From Leucoraja erinacea (Eukaryota), in assembly GCF_028641065.1 (NCBI RefSeq), contig NC_073382.1, positions 28,458,001-28,522,000 on the forward strand: a stretch of DNA of 64,000 nucleotides. Reading direction: 5' to 3'. This document shows positions 2,031-37,110 of this stretch, in pieces. The notes below the pieces were generated by a model. The model did no database searches and was not told where the DNA came from. It was given only the letters and a program-made list of their open reading frames with translations. Position 1 is the stretch's first letter. Every line of letters starts with the position of its first letter. The translations under genes were made by a program, and so were the position numbers.

Positions 2031-4463
2031 CTTAACGTAATGCACTCACATAAATCTCACGACCAAGAGTTATCTATTATCTCACTGGACGCAGAAAAAG
2101 CGTTTGATCAAGTAGAATGGGATTATATGATTAAAGTATTGCAAAAATTCCAATTGGGAGAAAACTTTATCGCATGGATAAAACTATTATATAACAAACC
2201 TACGGCTAGAATATTAACTAATAATATTTTATCCTCGAAATTTGAACTATCAAGGGGCAATAGACAAGGATGCTCATTATCACCGCTGTTATTTGCTTTG
2301 GTAATTGAACCCCTTGCTGAAAAAAAATAAGAACACAGCCGGATATTTATGGTTATAATACAAAATACTCAAAGAATAAAATATCCCTATATGCCGATGA
2401 TGTACTACTGTACATCACAAAACCACAAATTAGTATACCAAACATATTAAATTTAATTGAGGACTTTGGATCCTTTTCGGGATATAGAATAAATTGGAAC
2501 AAAAGTGAAATTATGTCGATAAAACCAAAAGACTCAACACATCTTCGGAAATTTCCCTTTAAAATAGCTACAGAAAAATTCAAATATTTGGGAATTGAAA
2601 TTACTAGAAATTACCAGGATATGTTTAAAGCCAATTATAATCCCTTACTCAAGAAATTGAATAATCTGATTAAATTCTGGAAAACACTTCCGATGTCCTT
2701 AATAGGCAGAATAAATGCTATTAAAATGGTTTTCTTACCACAAATTCTATACCTATTTCAATCAATACCTATATATCTCCCAAAAAAGTTCTTCAAAAAA
2801 TTGGACTCAGATATTACAAATTTTATATGGGATTATAAATCCCATAGAATACAAATAGCACACCTTAATAAACGAAAAGAGCTGGGGGGTCTAGCGCTCC
2901 CTAATTTTATGCATTATAATTGGGCAGTAAATATTAAAAATATGATTCACCTGCTGGACAATTCTGCACAGCAGGCGGACTGGATGGTAATGGAAAAAGG
3001 GGACTGCTCCCCGAGTAATATAGGAGCGACCATCCTCTCACCAATAAATTTGAATAATAAAAATTATAATAAAAATCCAATTATACATAACACAATAAGA
3101 ACATGGAAACAAAATAAAACAGAATTTAAAATTAGAAACCTATCTCTTTTAATACCAATAGTCAATAATCCATCGTTTAAACCATCAATCATAGACAAAT
3201 CATTTATACAATGGGAAAGAATGGGAATTAAAACGCTCGAAGATCTGTATGAATTGGGGAATTTACTATCATTTCAACAACTACAACTGAAATATAATTT
3301 GAAAAATAACCAATATTTTAAATATCTTCAAATTTGTGATTATCTGAAAAAAACACACAAAAGACTATCATAATATGCCTTCCGACTTATTGGATGAAGC
3401 AATGAAGACCAAGGCGGAATCAGCTAATTTAATATCGTACCTATATAATATCATTTTAAACATAGAAATACCCACAACAGATGGAATTAGAAAAGATTGG
3501 GAACAAGAATTAGCTATAAAAATATCAAAAGAGACCTGGGATAATCATTTACTACAGGTGCATAAATGTTCGATCAACGTACGACATACGCTCATCCAAT
3601 TTAAAACATTACATAGATTATATTATTCAAAAACTAAATTAAATAAAATCTTCCCTAATGTTTCACCAATCTGTGATAAATGCCTGTGTCAAGAAGCTAC
3701 CATAGCGCACTCTTTTGTTTTTTGTACAAAAATCCAAAAATTCTGGTATGAAATATTTGATATTTTTTCAAAATTGATCAAAATAAAACTGGTACCAAAA
3801 CCAGAATGGATTATCTTCGGAATATCGGAAGGTAACCCTGAATTAAACGTGTTTCAGAAGAATTTATTTAATTACGGGCTAATAATGGGAAAAAAGCTTA
3901 TACTTAAATTCTGGAAAAATGTGCCGACACCAACAATAAAAATGTGGATATGAAATATGTTTGAAACATTACATCTGGAAGAGATGAGATTCCTCCTAGC
4001 AGGTAAAGCAGACCAATTCCAAAAGACGTGGTCTATGTTTCTGGACCTATTACAAGTATGAGGTGCAATAGTAATTTAAAAAAAAACAAATATATAAATA
4101 AGTGGTATCAGGACCTGGTAATGGGAGGTAAAACAACAAAAACAGACTTGGTTGGTAGTCCCCTTTCTGCGGAGTTTAATGTTATAATAGAGCGATTGTT
4201 CCTATTTTCTCTTTCTTTCTTTTCTAGGGTCTATTTTCTCACTTTACTTCCTTCTCTAACTTCTTTCCTAAGGGGCTTTCTTTTCCCAACACTTTTGCAC
4301 TTCACGACTCTCTTGCACTTTCTTTACTTTCCTTACTTCTACCTTTTTCTTAAAGCTCAAAAAAAAATGAAGCGGTACAAAAAATGTATTAAGATATATG
4401 TGTTGTGTAGGATTGTAATTTACCGTACTTCTAATAAAAATAAAATTAAAAAAAAATATATAT
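2031..4463 (+). mobile_element. 5'-truncated L1-clade LINE inserted in CR1
   Basis: 12-bp TSD atataagattgt (2019-2030 / 4464-4475), AATAAA at 4433-4438, A-rich tail, T-rich 3'UTR. Confidence 0.93.
2040..4061 (+). pseudogene. L1 ORF2 remnant (RT plus C-terminal CCHC zinc knuckle), frameshifted
   Basis: SLDAEKAFD, RGNRQGCSLSPLLF, YADD (tatgccgatgat near 2390), FKYLGI, GGLALPNF, CDKC-x7-H-x4-C; split over ORFs 2040, 2513 and 3375. Confidence 0.92.
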
Positions 4464-10548: not shown

Positions 10549-10835
10549 AGTTCAGGAAAGACATCAGCTTATTTACTTTCTTAACCATCTGAAAATATTT
10601 AACAAGTCCATGAGGATTCTCTCAAACTTATAGATTTATAATAGAAAGTATTGTGATTGAATACCTCTCAGCCTCTTATGGCAACTGCTCCGACTTATCC
10701 TGAAGGGACTGGTGAACACAGCCCAGTCCATCTTCACAGGGTGTTGCATCTGGAAGGCTGGAAGTATTGTCAAGAATGCTGCCTCCCTGGCCAATCCCTT
10801 CTCCCTCCTTCTACCTTCTGAGAGAAAACACAGGA

Positions 10836-13320
10836 GTAAAACAGTTGTAATGGGTGACTTCAATCTACATATAGATTGGGTGAATCAAATTGGCAGAGGT
10901 GCTGAGGAAGAGGATTTCTTGGAATGTATGCGGGATAGTTTTCTAAACCAACATGTAGAGGAACCAACGAGAGAGCAGGCTATTCTAGACTGGGTATTGA
11001 GTAATGAGGATGGGTTAGTTAGCAGTCTTGTTGTGCGTGGCCCCTTGGGCAAGAGTAACCATAATATGGTTGAATTCTTTAATACGATGGAGAGTGACAT
11101 TGTTAATTCAGAAACAAGGGTCCTGATCTTAAAGAAAGGTGAGTTTGAGGGTGTGAGACGTGAATTGGCCAAGAAGGACTGGCAATTGATTCTTAAAGGG
11201 TTGACGGTGTATATGCAATGGAAGGCATTTAAAAACTGCATGGATGAACTACAACAATTGTTCATCCCAATTTGGCAAAAGAATAAATCAGGGAAGGTAG
11301 TGCATCCGCGGATAACAAGGAAAATCATGGATAGTATCAAAACAAAAGATGAAGCGTACAAATTAGCCAGAAAAAGCAGCCTACCAGAGGACTGGAAGAA
11401 ATTCAGAGTCCAGCAGAGGAGGATAAAAGTTTTATTAGGAAAGGGAAAATAGATTATGAAAGAAAACTGGCAGGGAACATAAAAACTGACTGTAAAAGTT
11501 TTTATAGATATGTGAAGAGGACAGGATTTGTTAAAACAAATGTAGGTCCCTTGCAGCCAGAAACAGGCAAATTGATAATGGGGAACAAGGACATGGCAGA
11601 CCAATTGAATAACTAATTTGGTTCTGTCTTCACTAAGGAAGACATAAATAATCTGCCGGAAATAGCAAGGGACCCGGGGGTTAAATGAGATGGAGGAAGT
11701 GAGTGAAATCCAGGTTAGCCGGGAAGTGGTGTTAGGTAAATTGAATGGATTAAAGGCTGATTAATCCCCAGGGCCAGATAAGTTGCATCCCAGAGTACTT
11801 AAGGAAGTAGCTGCAGAAATAGTGGATGCATTAGTGATAATTTTTCAAAACTCTTTAGATTCTGGAGTAGTTCCTGAGAACTGGAGGGTAGCTAATGTAA
11901 CCCCACTTTTTAAAAAGGGAGGGAGAGAGAAAACGGGGAATTACAGACCAGTTAGTCTAACATCGGTGGTGGGGAAAATTCTGGAGTCAGTTATTAAAGA
12001 TGGGATAGCAGCACATTTGGAAAGTAGTGAATTCATTGGACAAAGTCAGCATGGATTTATGAAAGGTAAATCATGTCTGACGAACCTTATAGAGGTTTTT
12101 CGAGGATGTAACTAGTAGGTGGATAAGGGAGAACCAGTGGATGTGTTATATCTGGACTTTCAGAAGGCTTTCGACAAGGTCCCACATAAGAGCTAGGTAT
12201 GCAAACTTAAAGCACACAGCATTGGGTGTTCAGTATTTATGTGGATAGAGAACTGGCTGACAGACAGGAAGCAAAGAGTAGGAGTAAATGGCAGGCAGTG
12301 ACTAGTGGGGTACTGCAAGGCTCAGTGCTGGGACCCCAGCTATTTACAATATATATTTATGATCTGGATGAGGGAATTGAATGCAACATCTCCAAGTTTG
12401 CGGATGACATGAAGCTGGGGGGCAGTGTTAGCTGTGAGGAAAATGCTAGGAGGCTGCAAGGTGACTTGGATAGGTTGGGTGAGTGGGAAAATGCATGGCA
12501 GATGCAGTATAATGTGGATAAATGTGAGGTTATTTTGGTGGCAAAAACAGGAAAGTAGACTGTTATCTGAATGGTGGCGGATTAGGAAAAGGGGAGATTC
12601 AACAAGACCTGGGTGTCATGGTACACCAGTCATTGAAAGTAGGCATGCAGGTGCAGCAGGCAGTGAAGAAAGCCAATGGTATGTTAGCATTTATAGCAAA
12701 AGGATTTGAGTATAAGAGCAGGGAGGTTCTACTGCAGTTGTACAGGGTCTTGGTGAGCCAAACCTGGAGTATTGCATACAGTTTTGGTCTCCTAATCTGA
12801 GGAAAGACTTTCTTACCATAGAGGGAGTACAGAGAAGGTTCACCAGACTGATTCATGGGATGTCAGGACTTTCATATGAAGAAAGACTGGATAGACTCGG
12901 CTTGTACACGCTAGAATTTTGAAGATTGAGGGGGATCTTATAGAAACTTACAAAATTCTTAAAGTGTTGGACAGGCTAGATGCAGGAAGATTATTCCTGA
13001 TGTTGGGGAAGTCCAGAACTAGGGGTCACAGTTTAAGGATAAGAGGGAATTCTTTTAGGACCGAGATGAGAAAATCATTTTTTACAGAGAGTGGTGAATC
13101 TGTGGAATTATCTCCCACAGAAGGTAGTTGAGGCCAGTTCATTGGCTATATTTAAGAGGGAGTTAGATGTGGCACTTGTGGCTAAAGGGATCTGGGGGTA
13201 TGGAGAGAAGGCATGGATGGGATAATGAGTTGGATGATCAGCCATGATCATATTGAATGCAGGCTCGATGGGTCGAATGGCCTACTCCTCCACCTATTTT
13301 CTATATTTCTATGTTTCTAT
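10836..13320 (+). mobile_element. CR1 LINE ORF2 (endonuclease C-terminal part to 3' end), frameshifted
   Basis: VVMGDFN (APE), ILDWVLSN, NYRPVSLTS, QHGFMKGKSCLTNL, GVLQGSVLGP, KFADD; tail (ttctat) repeats. Confidence 0.95.
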
Positions 13321-15249
13321 GAGCTTGAAAGTTTGTACATTAAGATTTAAGAACAGTTTCTTCCCCACGGTTTTCAAACTCCTGAACTAATCACCTTTCA
13401 CACTCCCTTCCCAAAGATGCTGCCATGTCCGTTAACTTTGAACTCTACCTCATTTATACTTTTTTTTACAATACTGCAGATTTTACTCTTTTCTTGCACC
13501 ATTGTGCTGTTTCACACTCATGGTATTTATCAGTACTGCATGTATGCTCTTTACTTTGTGAACTGCAGGTGTATATGACAATAACTAATCTGAATCTGAA
13601 TGAGTTGCTTCAGTAACCCTTGAGGGTAGCTTGGTGGGGAACCTTGTCAGGATGTGGACTTTGAAGATAAATATACCGATTCAAAATTGTAGCATTCTAA
13701 GCTTGCATGACTGAGAGATGAGTTTGATTGAGAGCAGGATAAATGACTGACTACTCTGCACCAGACGTTGAATAGTCTCTGCTTGTGTTCAAGCTGAGCC
13801 ATTGACAACCAAATGCTGCATAGAAGTGGCAATAGGCTTGCCCATCTGGAACCGCGAGGCTCCCAGCTCAGAACATAGCTTTGATTCAGGTTGTGTAGGC
13901 AATTCATTGTGCCTACTCATCAGACACCTTCATCATTGTCACAGTGATTATTTGAATCCTCTGCAGTAAACCTAGGCTGCTTGGACCTACATCAGCCATT
14001 GCACTTCCCTGGTTGCAATCTCCTTGCTCTTGTGATTCATCAAGCACAAAACCTGTGAACATTTCACTAAATACAGCAGTGTTATTAGCTGAGTTGCAAA
14101 GTGAATGAGAGTGCTCCCTCAACTCTTCAGCTTCACTGCCTTCAGATTCTCTAACACAGCTTGGGCCAGTGGAGATATTGGGCATCAAGAGAGAACAATT
14201 TTTTTGGGTAGTCAGGTTGCAGTGAAGTGGGATAGGATGTGGAGGGATGTAACTTGCACAGGTTGTGGCATCGGGGATGGTGCCGGGTTCGTCGGTGACC
14301 ACACCTATATTCGCATTAGGGTGAACTCACATGATATGTTTTATTTACAGTGGTAAGAAAGTCCAGGACTAATTGGGGGCGCTATCTTTTGCTGTCGGGG
14401 CGCACGTGCGATGGTGCTGCCGATCTTGAGCTTGTTCTAGCAGTTTGGTCACAAAGGAGGAAGCGTGGCGATCTCAGGCTTCTACCTGCTGTTCATCCTT
14501 GCATCGAGAGGAGATGCTGGCAGCCTCAGGTTTACCATGGTGGCTCAGCTTTGGAGATGCAGTGCTGGCAGTGTCTGGATTATTCTGGCGGTTCACTCTT
14601 AGCTTCTGTGTGGGCACAGTCACTCATTGTCCATGGGCAAGACACTGACATCTCAGGCTTGCTCCAGCCACTAAGTCTTAGCCTCAGTAGAGATACTGGC
14701 TGTCTAGGGCTTGTTCCCAGCAACCCAGTCTTGCCACACAGTGGTACTGGTTGTCTCAGGATTGTTGCCGTGGCTGCATTCCGCCTGCAGGGATCTGAAG
14801 GCAAGCAGCAACTCTGACACTATCTCGTCGTGCCATGGACCCAGATCACCTCCTCCATCAGGCTATCAGCAGAGAGCAGAGGCCGCCCCAACTGAAGTCC
14901 CATCACCCTACAGAACCTCCATGCCCTCAACTTCTATCATCAGGAAATACATCTGGGATCACATTCCAACTACATGGCATCTCAACCTAGAATTATATCA
15001 CTGCTTAATTAACATCACTTGATTTGAATGTGTAGGGAGCAATGCTGCAGAGGTATGTATAGTTTGATATACTTGCCAAAATATGTTGGCTTTATTGGCA
15101 AAGCCATCATTTCTTAATAAAAAAAACACTATTATTTGTAATTTATTTCCCTGACATTCTTTGATATGAATTTATTCAAACATTGCTGATTTTTAAAATT
15201 CTGGTAATGGAAAATGATGCAGGAAAATAATAATGGAAATAACAAGGAA

Positions 15250-16197
15250 ATACTCCCTCTTCACCTACGACTGCACACCTGTACATGGTACTAACACCAT
15301 CATCAAGTATGCAGATGATACAACAGTGATTGGCCTCATCAGCAACAACGATGAGTTGGCCTATAGGGAGGAGATCCAGCTCCTAGCAGCATGGTGCGCT
15401 GACAACAACTTGGCCCTTAACTCCAAGAAGACCAAGGAGCTCATTGTAGACTTCAGAAGGTCTAGGAGCGGCACGCACACCCCCATCCATATTAACGGGA
15501 CGGAGGTGGAACGTGTTTCCAGCTTCAGGTTTCTGGGGGGCAATATCTCCGATGACCTCTCTTGGACACACAATTACTCAACACTGGTCAGGAAGGCTCA
15601 CCAGTGTCTCTTCTTCCTGAGGAGACTAAAGAAGGTCTATCTGTCTCCTCAGATTCTGGTGAACTTCTACCGCTGCACCATCGAGAGCATCCTTACCAAC
15701 TGTATCACAGTATGGTATGGCAACTGCTCTGTCTCCGACTCGAAAGCAGAGGGTGGTGAAAATTGCCCAACGCATCACCGGTTCCTCACTCCCTCCATTG
15801 AGTCTGTCCAAAGCGAGCGATGTCTGCGAAGGGCGCGCAGCATCGTCAAGGACTGCTCTCACCCCAACCACAGACTGTTTACCCTCCTACCATCCAGAAG
15901 GTCCTACAGGTCTCTCCGTTGCTGGACCAGCAGGTCCAGGAACAGCATCTCCCCTGCGGCTGTTACATTTCTTAACTCTGTACCTCGGTGATTGCCAATC
16001 AGCCCACCCCCCCGGATACTCCTTCCCCCAGAAAAATTGCACTACTACGACTGTATGTATGCATATATATTTATTGCTCATATTCTATGTTCGCTCTTCT
16101 GGGGAGATGCTAACTGTATTTCGTTGTCTCTGTACTGAACTGTACTCCTTCCCCCTGCACAATGACAATAACGTTTGAATCTGAATCTGAATCTGAA
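15250..16197 (+). mobile_element. Rex1/Babar LINE 3' part
   Basis: YSLFTYDC...KYADDTTVIG...KTKELIVDFRR...FYRCTIESIL; (tgaatc)n tail. Confidence 0.92.
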
Positions 16198-20421: not shown

Positions 20422-21522
20422 CCTCTTCTGATAGTTAACATCCTAGTGAATCTTTTCTGCACCCTCACCGAAGCCCCATCCTTCCTATAATGTGGCAACC
20501 AGAACTGCATTCAATACTTCCAAATCTGGCCTAACTAAAGTTTTACGTCTGTAACTAGGGTTTTATGCAGCAGTAACGTTAAGCCCAATAATGTACATTA
20601 AACATTCCCAATTGAACCAGTATAGGACTTGATAACTTACAGTTACATAGTGTTTTATATGAGAACAACAATCTTCTTAATATTGTTTTTTTTATGGTTC
20701 AGCAAATTAAGTTCTTGCTGCCTATTGTGGGAAACGGCATTAATTCAACTACAAAAGAGGCAAGCCATCTTTACAGCCACATGGCTATTCATTTGTAACT
20801 TTAACCTGATATTAGTATTTTTTTAATCCCTTTCCATTCACAATTCCAGGACCACCACCTGGCCAACGATCACCTTTGACCTTCATTAGCAGCAATTATA
20901 AGAATCCTTCCTCAGTGCCATTCCCTTCTGTCCAGTTCTGTGTCATGTCCTGGGTTAAGTACCTTAGAAAATGGGTGATTTTCAGCATTTTCAGATTATC
21001 TATTCAAAACCACTTGTTTCTTTTCACTCTTTGCTTTTGTCCTTCTCTTTGCTGTTTAGATAAAAGATGAAATATGACAAAAAGAATTTAGGCAAAGTCA
21101 ACATAATCTGCTTGAACTACCTTTAATTCAGAAATGTAGGAATTAAGTCTTACAGTTTGAGGGTGACCTGCCTGTGCTTATTGCAAATGAGAACCAAGTG
21201 TGGAGAAAGGAAAGAAACAGTAAAGAAAGGCCAATGAGAATACCCTTTATGGTGTTTTGTAGCCTTTGGGAAAGGAAAGCAATGTGGTTTTTGAAAGACA
21301 AGCTGTGTACTTTCCCTCAGGCACATCATAAGGAGACACTTTTCATTTTGTGCATTATAATAGCTATCATCTGGAGAACATGGAAATGTTTCTTGGTTAG
21401 AATTGATAAGAATAACTTCCTTACAGGGCTTGGTCATCGTCAGCTGCACTTAAACTCAGAGGCTAATGATATAAAGACTGTTACAAATCTTTGTTTCAGT
21501 TTCAGGTTCTCTGCAAATATTT

Positions 21523-21576
21523 GGGGTGGAAGATTGCAACCTTCATGTTGTCCACCCTGTTTCGCCAAATGCAATC
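21523..21576 (+). ncRNA. minimal HDV-like self-cleaving ribozyme (predicted)
   Basis: P1 GGGGUGG/CCACCCU with G1-U wobble; P2 GAUUGCA/UGCAAUC; P3 ACC/UGU (1 mismatch); 7-nt L3 UUCAUGU; J4/2 C-AAA. Confidence 0.72.
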
Positions 21577-21656
21577 AACCCAGCGTGCACAATCAAATAA
21601 GATCAAATAGAACAAGTTGTCCTACAACTTTAGACTGTGCACATCAAGAACAAGAA
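21523..21656 (+). mobile_element. 134-bp non-autonomous retroposon with 5' HDV-like ribozyme
   Basis: 10-bp TSD gcaaatattt (21513-21522 / 21657-21666); 3' nested stems gtgcaca/tgtgcac and aagttgt/acaactt; caagaacaagaa tail. Confidence 0.8.
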
Positions 21657-22039
21657 GCAAATATTTTAAGAGCTTCGAGTGAGATTAAAGAAAATCATGG
21701 AAAACGTTGGCCAAAGTTTTGCACAAAATCTTTGAAATTAACTAACTTTAATTATATTTCAGTAATTATATTGCAAAATGGCATTATGTTTCTGCATCTT
21801 TCAGGAATTATTTAAAGCACATGAGGCATCCTACAGAATTAAATGTTGCTGACACCAACTTACCTGCTGACATCAATATTTGGAATTGGATTTGGAATAC
21901 TTTATTGTCACATGTGACTAGGCACAGTGAAATTCTTCGCTGCATACCCAATGTGTACAAATTCACATAAACTCTCTTTTAAAAGATCCAATATCTGACA
22001 TGGTGTGTAAGTTAGAATGTCCAAGTCACTATTAACTTC

Positions 22040-27465: not shown

Positions 27466-27509
27466 TGTGTAGGAATGAACTGCAGATGCTGGTTTAAACT
27501 GAAGATAGA
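27466..27509 (-). mobile_element. Penelope-like tail stub
   Basis: tgtgtaggaatgaactgcagatgctggtttaaactgaagataga, same family as 22930 and 56222. Confidence 0.7.
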
Positions 27510-28535
27510 TGGTTAGGGTGGGAGGGGTCTTTGATGATCTTCCCGGCCCGTCTCAGACACCGTTTTTGGTGGAGGGCATCCATGGCAGGGAGCGGGACAC
27601 CGATGATGTACTGAGCGATTTTCACCACCCGTTGTAGTGCCTTCCTGTCCGCTATGGTGCAACTGCTGTACCATACCGTGAAGCAAGTGGTCAGGATGCT
27701 TTCGATGGTACAGCGGTAAAAGTTGGTCAGGATCTGGGGGGACAGGTGAGCTCTCTTGAGCCTCCTCAGGAAGTAAAGGCGCTGCTGTGCCTTTTTGATC
27801 AGCTTGGAGGTGTTGAGGGACCAGACAGATCCTTCGAGATGTGTACCCCGAGGAATTTGTAGTTGGAGACGCGCTCCACCTCAGTCCCGTTTATATGGAT
27901 GGGGGTATGTCTGCCCCCTCTGTTCTTCCTGAAGTCAACAATAATTTCCTTCGTCTTCTTGGAGTTGAGGAGAAGGTTATTGTTGGCACACCAGGTTGTC
28001 AGGTGCTGGACCTCCTCCCTGTAGGCTGACTCGTCATTGTCACTGATCAGTCCTACCACCGTGGTGTCATCGGCAAGTTTATTGATGGCGTTGGAGCCAT
28101 TGTTAGGGATGCAGTCATGGGTGAAGAGGGAGTAGAGGAGAGGGCTGCGCACACAGCCCTGTGGCACGCCGGTGTTCAGTGTTATGGTGGAGGAGGTGAG
28201 GTTGTTGACCCTAACAGACTGTGGTCTGTTGGTGAGGAAATCCAGTGTCCAATTGCAGAGGGAGGTGGAGATGCCAAGTCCACTGAGTTTGGTGATCAAG
28301 CTGGCAGGGATGACAGTGTTAAAGGCAGAGCTGAAATCAATGAACAGCAACCTGATGTAGGTGTTATTGCTGTCCAGGTGGGCCAGGGCAGAGAGTAGGG
28401 CCGCCGATATGGCGTCCTCTGTAGACCTGTTGGTCCGGTAGGCAAACTGATGGGGGTCCAGTGTGGGGGGGAGGCTGGCGTTGAGGTGAGCCAAGATCAG
28501 CCACTCAAAGCTCTTTGCAATGACAGGGGACTGAT
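27510..28535 (-). mobile_element. Rex1/Babar LINE RT
   Basis: ORF 27799-28554: [42 protein letters not shown]. Confidence 0.93.
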
Positions 28536-28539
28536 GCAA

Positions 28540-29152
28540 TTGTAAAGAAGGCACATCAGCGATTCTACTTCCTGAGAAGATTAAGGAGATTCGGCATGTC
28601 GAAGAAGATTCTCCTAAACTTCTACAGGTGCATGGTAGAGAGCATTCTGATTGGTTGCATCATGGCCTGATTCGGCAACTTGAACATCCAGGAGCGAAAA
28701 AGACTACAAAAAGTTGTGACCAATGCCCAGTCCATCACCGGCTTTGACCTCCCCACCGTCGAAGGGATCTGTCGTAGTCGCTACCTCAAAAAGGCAGCCA
28801 ACATCATCAAGGACCCACACCACCCTGGCCACACACTCATCTCACCATTGCCATCAGGAAGAAGGTACAGGAGCCTGAAAACTGTAACGTCCAGGTTCAG
28901 AAACAGCTTCTTCCCTACAGCCATCAGGCTATTAAACACAACAATGAATAAGCTATGAGCTCTGAACTGCAAAAGACTATATTAATATTTGTTATTTGCA
29001 CTATATTTGTTATTTATTGAACTTTTTCTTTTTTCCCCTTTATATACAATGCTTACATATTCACATATTCTGTTGTGCTGCAGCAAGTAAGAATTTCATT
29101 GTCCCATCAGGAACATATGATAATAAAACACTCTTGGCTCTCTTGACTCTTG
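28540..29152 (+). mobile_element. Rex1/Babar LINE 3' end
   Basis: IIKDPHHPGHTLISPLPSGRRYRS...RFRNSFFP; (ctcttga)n tail. Confidence 0.9.
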
Positions 29153-36257: not shown

Positions 36258-37110
36258 TTATGGCATGTGTACGGAACGGGCAGGAGGAGGAATACAGGAA
36301 CTTGACCAGTTCCTTTTGTGCCTGGAGTGAAGAGAACTGTCTCATCCTGAACACAACTAAGACTAAAGAGATGGTGGTTAACTTTGGCAGGTCCAAGCTC
36401 CCCTTTCAGCCGGTCAACGCTGCTGGGGCTGACATTGAGGTGGTGCAGACATATAAATACCTTGTAGTGCACCTTGATAACAAACTGGACTAGTCTGTCA
36501 ACTCTGACTTCCTCTACAAAAAAGGCCAGAGCAGACTCTTTTTCCTCAGAAGGCTCAAATCCTTCAATATGTGTAATGACATGCTGCACATGTTTTACAA
36601 CACTGTGGTTGCAAGTGTTATTTTCTACGCTGTTGTCTGCTGGGGCAACGGCATTAGTGCAAAAAACACCAAGAAGCTGGTCAAACTGGTTAAACGAGCT
36701 AGCTCAGTGCTGGAGGGGAGAGTAGACTCTGGGATGGATGTGCTTGAGAGTCGTATGAGGCACAAGGTACAGGTCATCCTGAAAAACCCCGGGCACCCCC
36801 TCCATGTAATTCTGGAGAGTCAAAAGAGCACTCGGAACAACAACCGGCTCCTCTCCCTGCCCTGTAGAACGGAGCGGTTCAGGAGATCCTTCACCCCTGC
36901 AGACATTAGATTTTATAATTCGGACCGCTGGGCTGTAGGGGGATGCATTCTTGCAATTTTTAATTTTTAATTGTTAATTATTGGTCTTTTTAAGTATTTA
37001 TTGCTCTCAGTTTATTCTATGTATTTTCTGTCTGCGTTCGTTTTGAATCTGTGGGTTTGTTGGTTGGGGGCTTCTGGACATCAGAATTTCCCCTGAGGGG
37101 ATCAATAATG

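Follow-up and report, generated by a model that had tools for sequence, protein, structure and literature searches.

A ~135-bp non-autonomous retroposon derived from the ends of a Vingi-like LINE and headed by a predicted P4-less HDV-like ribozyme

The closest described systems come from trypanosomes, in which L1Tc starts with a 77-nt HDV-like ribozyme, L1TcRz, that possesses P4 and a 1-bp P1.1 and whose cleavage site is position +1 of the element (PMC3185411, PMC4035085). Bipartite non-autonomous LINEs have been reported to arise in four clades only, namely RTE, Ingi, Vingi, and R2, and the available text of that report lists ribozymes for R1, R2, R4, RTE, Ingi, plus LOA only (PMC5786205). 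Vingi elements are described as having a single ORF that encodes an APE endonuclease and a reverse transcriptase (RT), without RNase H (PMC13708176), and a full-text literature search on Vingi and ribozyme gave no description of a Vingi ribozyme in the accessible texts. Minimal HDV-like ribozymes are nearly 99% bacteriophage sequences, often adjoining tRNAs, and their eukaryotic origin is left open in the accessible part of the study that described them (PMC10879173). Here we analyze an insert within a 64-kb stretch of DNA (the window, meaning the whole stretch analyzed). With a probability of roughly 85%, we regard it as a ~135-bp non-autonomous retrotransposon made from the ends of a Vingi-like LINE, with a predicted P4-less HDV-like head that would cut at G1.

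The 134-bp insert is flanked by a 10-bp direct repeat, gcaaatattt, at 21513–21522 and 21657–21666, and all features given below are on the + strand. The left copy of this target-site duplication (TSD) ends directly before G1, as judged from both the repeat and the TSD boundary of the family. The predicted ribozyme head occupies the following 54 nt (21523–21576) and was laid out by structural segmentation, giving an arrangement identical to that at the 5' end of the partner LINE described below. It consists of P1 (21523–21529/21552–21558, with a G1·U wobble), J1/2 AA (21530–21531), P2 (21532–21538/21570–21576), P3 ACC/UGU with one C·U mismatch (21539–21541/21549–21551), a 7-nt L3 UUCAUGU (21542–21548), and a 1-bp P1.1 (C21544–G21559). 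P4 is absent, only 7 nt being located between P1 and J4/2 CAAA (21566–21569), whose first base, C21566, is the predicted catalytic C of the C-N-A-A motif. The remainder of the part derived from the LINE 5' UTR (nt 55–81, 21577–21603) contains the 5' arm of an outer stem (21585–21591/21636–21642). It is followed by a short junction (21604–21617) found in neither end of the LINE, which includes most of the 5' arm of an inner stem (21614–21620/21624–21630) and looks like a local duplication. The part derived from the LINE 3' end (21618–21644) comprises the final ORF codons, a TAG stop (21631–21633), and the 3' UTR, in which the outer stem has its 3' arm. The last segment (21645–21656) is degenerate; approximately 6 nt of the family 3' motif CCATACGC are missing, and an AAG-like tail follows, to which the first G of the right repeat is equally assignable. 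The repeat, P1, J1/2, P2, P3, L3, G21559, C21566, and the 3' stems were thus all located where the original prediction had placed them.

When both strands of the window were searched with a strict HDV descriptor tolerating a single mismatch in P3, only position 21523 matched, and 10 shuffled windows gave no match. Rfam detected no ribozyme at this locus, only chance matches, and a plain minimum-free-energy fold, a method that cannot represent a pseudoknot, was unremarkable (z = −1.18). Over its first 122 positions, the window copy departs from the column majority 11 times. One of these changes is G27T at 21549, where 77 of 84 copies have G and two have T, and which breaks P3. It also allows nt 14–18 to pair with nt 25–29, forming an alternative hairpin that takes the 5' strand of P2; the energy of P1 plus P3 is −7.8 kcal/mol in this copy versus −12.4 kcal/mol in an intact copy (L010). 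This agrees with the suspicion that the P3 mismatch may weaken the window copy. Because of this mismatch and the loss of the 3' motif, the window copy is probably a dead descendant, inactive both as a ribozyme and as a template.

Several other features were observed around the insert. A 222-codon stop-free frame (21147–21815) spans it, the insert and one TSD adding 144 bp in frame; this frame has no Pfam match and is probably a chance occurrence. No host exon was recognized in the 40 of 96 long frames that were scanned, in which every match was a LINE domain. In the RNA read pile-up, 21893–21941 proved to be a piece of a second short repeat, also very abundant, in the opposite orientation. Other LINE fragments containing RVT_1, endonuclease, and ALKBH8_N/DUF1891 domains are located at 2321–3953, 10661–11452, 15218–15991, and 27494–28659, as well as at 36494, 43026, 44186, 50509, and 54738.

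The prediction of a multicopy family was borne out by the genome. A search with the insert gave 1,456 candidates, the top 40 of which matched at 90–100%, and an exact 28-mer of the head and an exact 26-mer of the 3' end had 4,718 and 3,151 matches, respectively, against none for the reversed head control. The copy number of the ~135-bp family is estimated at approximately 11,000–16,000 from two overlap estimates, 16,513 and 11,344, which rest on 24/84 and 7/30. The mean divergence of a copy from the column majority is 4.4%. The 5' ends were examined at 100 loci, the first to be listed among the 3'-end matches and all located on one contig (C1); since these loci were picked by their 3' ends, the sample is unbiased as to the 5' end. 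Seventy-five of them begin at nt 1–3 (69 at nt 1) and nine at nt 4–16, 12 are truncated or interrupted, and four are LINE 3' ends. Hence, 69 of the 96 non-LINE copies start at nt 1, as expected if 5' ends are fixed at G1. Of 75 full-length copies, 61 have a TSD that stops directly before G1, compared with 8 of 2,000 in a mismatched-flank control; moving the boundary 2 and 3 nt into the element leaves only 19 and 9 such copies.

The TSD length has a mode of 12 nt, the tail consists of 3–6 AAG units, and the TSD overlaps the AAG run by 1–3 nt in 42 of 62 copies. The hallmarks of target-primed reverse transcription are present: TSDs, a simple-repeat tail, some 5' truncation, and one 5'-inverted copy (L255). 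The base preceding G1 is T in 58% and G in 8% of the 96 copies, and this T excess could stem from the site choice of the endonuclease or from pairing with an A added to the cDNA without a template. No empty site was found for the window locus, the contigs of three related organisms having the element or its 3' end.

The fold was evaluated in 84 copies by counting pairs through structural segmentation; a MAFFT alignment was not used, as it misaligned the variable P4 region of diverged heads. All helices are mostly intact, each pair being standard in most copies, and the family fits the nested double pseudoknot of HDV, with a 7-bp P1 in which G1 is paired, P2, a 3-bp P3, and P1.1. P3 is restored as predicted, C19–G27 being formed in 75 of 84 copies, and 21 copies retain all pairs together with the core bases. 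C44, the catalytic position, is C in 79/84 copies, and A46 and A47 are each kept in 83/84, while nt 45 is variable; J4/2 thus starts with C followed by N-R-A, and U and C of L3 are also conserved. When the LINE heads were compared with the mini-elements over nt 2–54, the common variants other than CpG changes were found at nt 8 (J1/2), nt 32 (P1, U·G or U–A), and nt 45 (the J4/2 bulge). These are all structure-neutral, and the other common head variants resemble CpG decay. The body of the mini-element, unlike the head, has indels and several substitutions. Essentially no two-sided covariation was observed among the 84 copies. The family head gave no Rfam match at E ≤ 1 (L283, L241), and Rfam models that include P4 may overlook P4-less forms. 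RNAfold, which cannot handle pseudoknots, kept P2 and lost P1 for the intact copy L010 with its upstream flank.

The same fold was sought in distant relatives at 75 metagenome loci, 30 of which reach the ORF start with sequence upstream. An HDV fold was detected just upstream of the ORF in 8 of these 30, versus 0 of 120 shuffles, and a strict version of the search matched 5/30 loci, 0/150 shuffles, and 1/30 antisense sequences. A good fold is missing in the other 22 of 30, many of which have no 5' end. Six relatives were tabulated; all but one of their 101 pairs are standard (100/101), and two-sided changes occur at 15 of 17 pair positions, although this pairing is partly by construction because the six were chosen by a pairing descriptor; the position and the shuffles form the independent part of the evidence. 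In one of them (L333), P1 probably lacks a base.

A second AAG-tailed mini-element family of ~170 bp, with 639 exact 25-mer matches, was also found in the genome (L426–L467; e.g., L461, G000:C1:139351580 onward). Its head is likewise P4-less and HDV-like with 53–54 nt, differs in sequence, and passes the Rfam CPEB3 model in some copies. Relative to the first family, 5 of 7 P2 pairs and 2 of 3 P3 pairs (7/10 in total) are changed on both sides, while L3 and C-N-A-A are the same; P1 usually has 6 bp. Of the 30 copies fetched, 20 had a readable 3' end and 15 of these had a TSD. The partner LINE of this family was not found among 30 Vingi-like loci. Selection on the minimal form is most strongly indicated by this second family. 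The anticipated covariation of P1 and P2 is hence seen across related families and is lacking inside the young first family.

A fixed 5' end could also be generated by an internal Pol II promoter, with the P4-less fold cleaving poorly and being retained as a protective or protein-binding structure. L1Tc offers a precedent, since its Pr77 was reported both as a promoter starting at +1 and as a ribozyme (PMC3185411). In the RNA data, which comprised one polyA run of a related organism (~6% read, 905 reads placed), there was no read-start pile-up at G1, which agrees with this idea. The missing pile-up is weak evidence because loose-end strands were pooled, approximately three quarters of the copies carry mutations, and a poly(A) is lacking in the element. 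It is also evident from the sequence that G37–C44 could close a 2-bp UUCG hairpin, which would tie up the catalytic C. On the other hand, J4/2 retains its catalytic C and its A-A in 18/18 LINE heads, 29/30 copies of the second family, and all six tabulated distant relatives, whereas the neighboring bulge base varies freely. Activity has furthermore been reported for P4-less HDV-like ribozymes (PMC10879173). We therefore consider a promoter in place of cleavage to be unlikely; a promoter together with an active ribozyme would be compatible with the ribozyme-headed retroposon that we favor. In the same run, 209 reads cross G1 into other upstream sequence, which indicates that the family is transcribed within other RNAs, and the unique flanks of the window locus had zero coverage. 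A strand bias of ~1.7–2.5 fold in the RNA reads was rejected as a sign of cleavage, as a neighboring unrelated repeat shows an equal bias.

The partner LINE was reached from the 3' end of the mini-element. In two loci (L126, L110), the last ~45 nt are common with the mini-element and are preceded by an ORF ending in a CCHC finger. Walking upstream from such LINE 3' ends passed through 5'-truncated copies and the RT domain to the 5' end. There, the LINE opens with the 54-nt head of the mini-element, remains alike up to ~nt 81, and then proceeds through a short UTR to an APE endonuclease. Nt 1–81 of the mini-element hence correspond to the LINE 5' end and nt ~96–140 to its 3' end, joined by the ~14-nt junction without any ORF. 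Since the first ~81 and last ~45 nt are shared with the LINE, the insert family is, on this comparison, an internal-deletion derivative (a bipartite non-autonomous LINE of the NARTc/RIME type), not a true SINE. The expected "SINE-like family" is thereby refined to a deleted LINE. The partner is ~3.1 kb in near-full-length form (a later insertion being removed), with a single ORF for endonuclease, RT, and a CCHC finger and no RNase H. An autonomous-type LINE sharing both termini was thus found as anticipated, though an unbroken copy was not, every near-full-length copy seen being broken. The TSDs of two near-full-length copies (L222, L226) stop at G1. These copies are colinear with an intact homologue of 1,019 aa (P0001) over its residues 29–1011, with 72% identity in the RT; Pfam detects EN, RVT_1, and a weak zf-RVT in P0001 and no RNase H. 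Named relatives of the partner at ~50% are arthropod proteins, and P0001, which is far closer, may indicate a close relative or horizontal transfer. A C-terminal CCHC finger is present in 72 of 79 long homologues, which are single-ORF proteins of ~1,000 aa, and this arrangement fits Ingi/Vingi and is atypical of RTE. The 120 homologues listed include no named Vingi or Ingi reference, so that the clade name comes from the architecture and not from a tree with such references.

A conventional Pol III SINE whose head comes from a tRNA or small RNA, with a LINE tail and a coincidental pseudoknot, would also explain the small size, the many copies, and the LINE-derived 3' end, and a weak B-box-like stretch can be discerned by eye at nt 37–47. 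We regard this as very improbable, because the LINE itself supplies the head as its 5' end, no tRNA was detected in 3/3 loci scanned, and no small-RNA match was obtained from Rfam. The A- and B-like boxes would moreover stand too close together for a Pol III SINE. Mobilization by an RTE-clade LINE, for which HDV-like ribozymes and bipartite derivatives have been reported (PMC5786205), is less probable still, as the LINE that shares both ends matches the single-ORF, CCHC-fingered proteins above. From the suggested Ingi/Vingi- or RTE-type partner, the Vingi-like part therefore stands and the RTE part does not; the partner fits Vingi because it has one ORF and no RNase H, as described for that clade (PMC13708176).

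Among 30 loci of the partner LINE reaching the 5' UTR (L191–L220, some of them duplicates), 16 are 5'-inverted, with antisense LINE sequence abutting upstream, and this high inversion rate resembles twin priming. Ten of the inverted pieces extend to nt 1–13 of the head, which fits an RNA template starting at about G1. The outer stem (21585–21591/21636–21642 in the window) pairs a segment of the LINE 5' UTR with one of the 3' UTR, so the full LINE RNA could pair its ends; the A61G change of the mini-element gives this stem one more pair. Of 27 distant relatives, 14 have a CATAYG motif close to where the ORF ends, which in approximately three of these is CATATG inside the coding sequence. A partner candidate obtained through Pfam PF14529 was rejected as a different LINE without a ribozyme or shared ends in 30/30 loci, one of which contained a separate mini-element copy. 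A young, different LINE family (L061–L089), which we take to be Nimb-like, has near-identical endonucleases and open frames of up to 1,268 aa.

Three other Vingi-like families were found in the same genome, and both of those with intact 5' ends begin with P4-bearing HDV folds. The TSDs of their members L366 and L380 stop at G1. L380 (G000:C8:43217000–43220185, − strand), a sister LINE of ~3.1 kb, scores 56.0 bits with the Rfam CPEB3 model against a threshold of 35, and the 5' end of its family (L397–L418) reaches 62 bits. The family of L366 and L368 (G000:C34 and C27) has a near-intact ORF, a 1,086-codon frame with three stops, and its head is HDV-like with P4 and scores 26 bits, below the CPEB3 threshold. 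The CPEB3 model (RF00622) gave 59 scored matches on this genome, 48 of them above threshold, and older CPEB3-like heads of at least two more degenerate families were observed (L396, L400, L411, L413, L414, L419–L424). On two metagenome contigs (L343:2188–2271 and L342), an HDV-like head that is nearly identical to the Rfam CPEB3 consensus across P1–P3 lies upstream of a related broken LINE ORF; that of L343 scores 55.6 bits (threshold 35). The covariance search proposed in the original prediction thus gave no match for the family head itself, whereas sister LINE heads and some second-family copies pass RF00622. The sister heads suggest a LINE origin of the mammalian CPEB3 ribozyme. A wider reading, which we hold tentatively and at somewhat less than even odds, is that HDV/CPEB3-type ribozymes form the standard 5' end of Vingi-like LINEs, that P4-less mini-elements originated at least twice here and left thousands of competent cleaving sites in host transcripts, and that mammalian CPEB3 is a domesticated LINE 5' end.

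For the insert family, we infer self-cleavage 5' of G1 by the predicted ribozyme head and propose the following mechanism. A copy in a transcribed region would be read through by Pol II or transcribed from a weak internal promoter, and co-transcriptional self-cleavage would then produce a defined, pseudoknot-protected 5'-OH end. The LINE endonuclease/RT protein would recognize the common 3' end (the stem, the CATACG motif, and the AAG repeats) in trans. Target-primed reverse transcription would begin on 1–3 nt of microhomology to the AAG tail and proceed to G1, giving a TSD of ~11–12 bp. In sum, the initial observation is confirmed and its overall interpretation is supported.

The NARTc/RIME design of a ribozyme-headed, promoter-light mini-retroposon is hereby extended to an animal genome with ~10^4 copies. 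The P4-less HDV-like ribozyme, known earlier almost only from phages (PMC10879173), would gain a eukaryotic home and a function. The finding also bears on the question raised by the accessible text of PMC5786205, why RTE, Ingi, Vingi, and R2 alone yield bipartite LINEs. Vingi is the one of these four clades without a listed ribozyme; should these heads cleave, none of the four would lack one, and a 5' end made by the element itself would be the likely enabling feature for bipartite LINEs. As approximately a quarter of the copies (21/84) keep every pair, cleavage sites may number in the thousands in host introns. In gene writing, where Vingi elements are used as tools (PMC13708176), a natural 135-nt template that processes its own 5' end is attractive in practice. 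Furthermore, because sister heads score as CPEB3 ribozymes, the idea that CPEB3 arose from a retrotransposon can be put to the test. Among the titles and abstract openings returned by the literature searches, none describes the present family or derives CPEB3 from Vingi, and it is quite possible that the family is already annotated in a repeat collection such as Repbase or Dfam, in a patent, or in a supplement. As far as was checked, the design is known from NARTc/RIME and the R2 SIDEs, and the Vingi-like partner, the P4-less head in an animal retroposon, and the scale are apparently new.

The family can finally be compared with five known systems. The mammalian CPEB3 ribozyme (RF00622) shares the Rfam-consensus L3 letters UUCACGU and the G-U start of P1.1; it is a single intronic copy with P4, whereas the head of this family reaches no Rfam score. 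The drz-Mtgn-1 and theta ribozymes have the same P4-less nested double pseudoknot, with the catalytic C first in J4/2 and a short J1/2 and L4 (PMC10879173), and in contrast to these mostly phage-borne minimal forms, the present ones head retrotransposons in an animal genome. The R2 SIDEs are likewise internally deleted, ribozyme-headed, and moved in trans (PMC3414825, PMC6765202), but R2 is site-specific in 28S rDNA and uses a restriction-like endonuclease, whereas this family is dispersed and of the APE type. Vingi LINEs and their deleted derivatives (Vingi-1_EE) agree in the single-ORF EN plus RT architecture and in having bipartite offspring, and differ in that, among the four Vingi-like families and several metagenome relatives analyzed here, intact 5' ends begin with an HDV fold. 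The closest likeness in design is to NARTc/RIME, derived from L1Tc/ingi of trypanosomes, in which both ends of an Ingi-group LINE are kept behind an HDV-like head (PMC3185411, PMC4035085). Compared with these, the present family has an animal host, an RNase H-less Vingi-like partner, a 54-nt P4-less head, an AAG tail, and ~10^4 dispersed copies.
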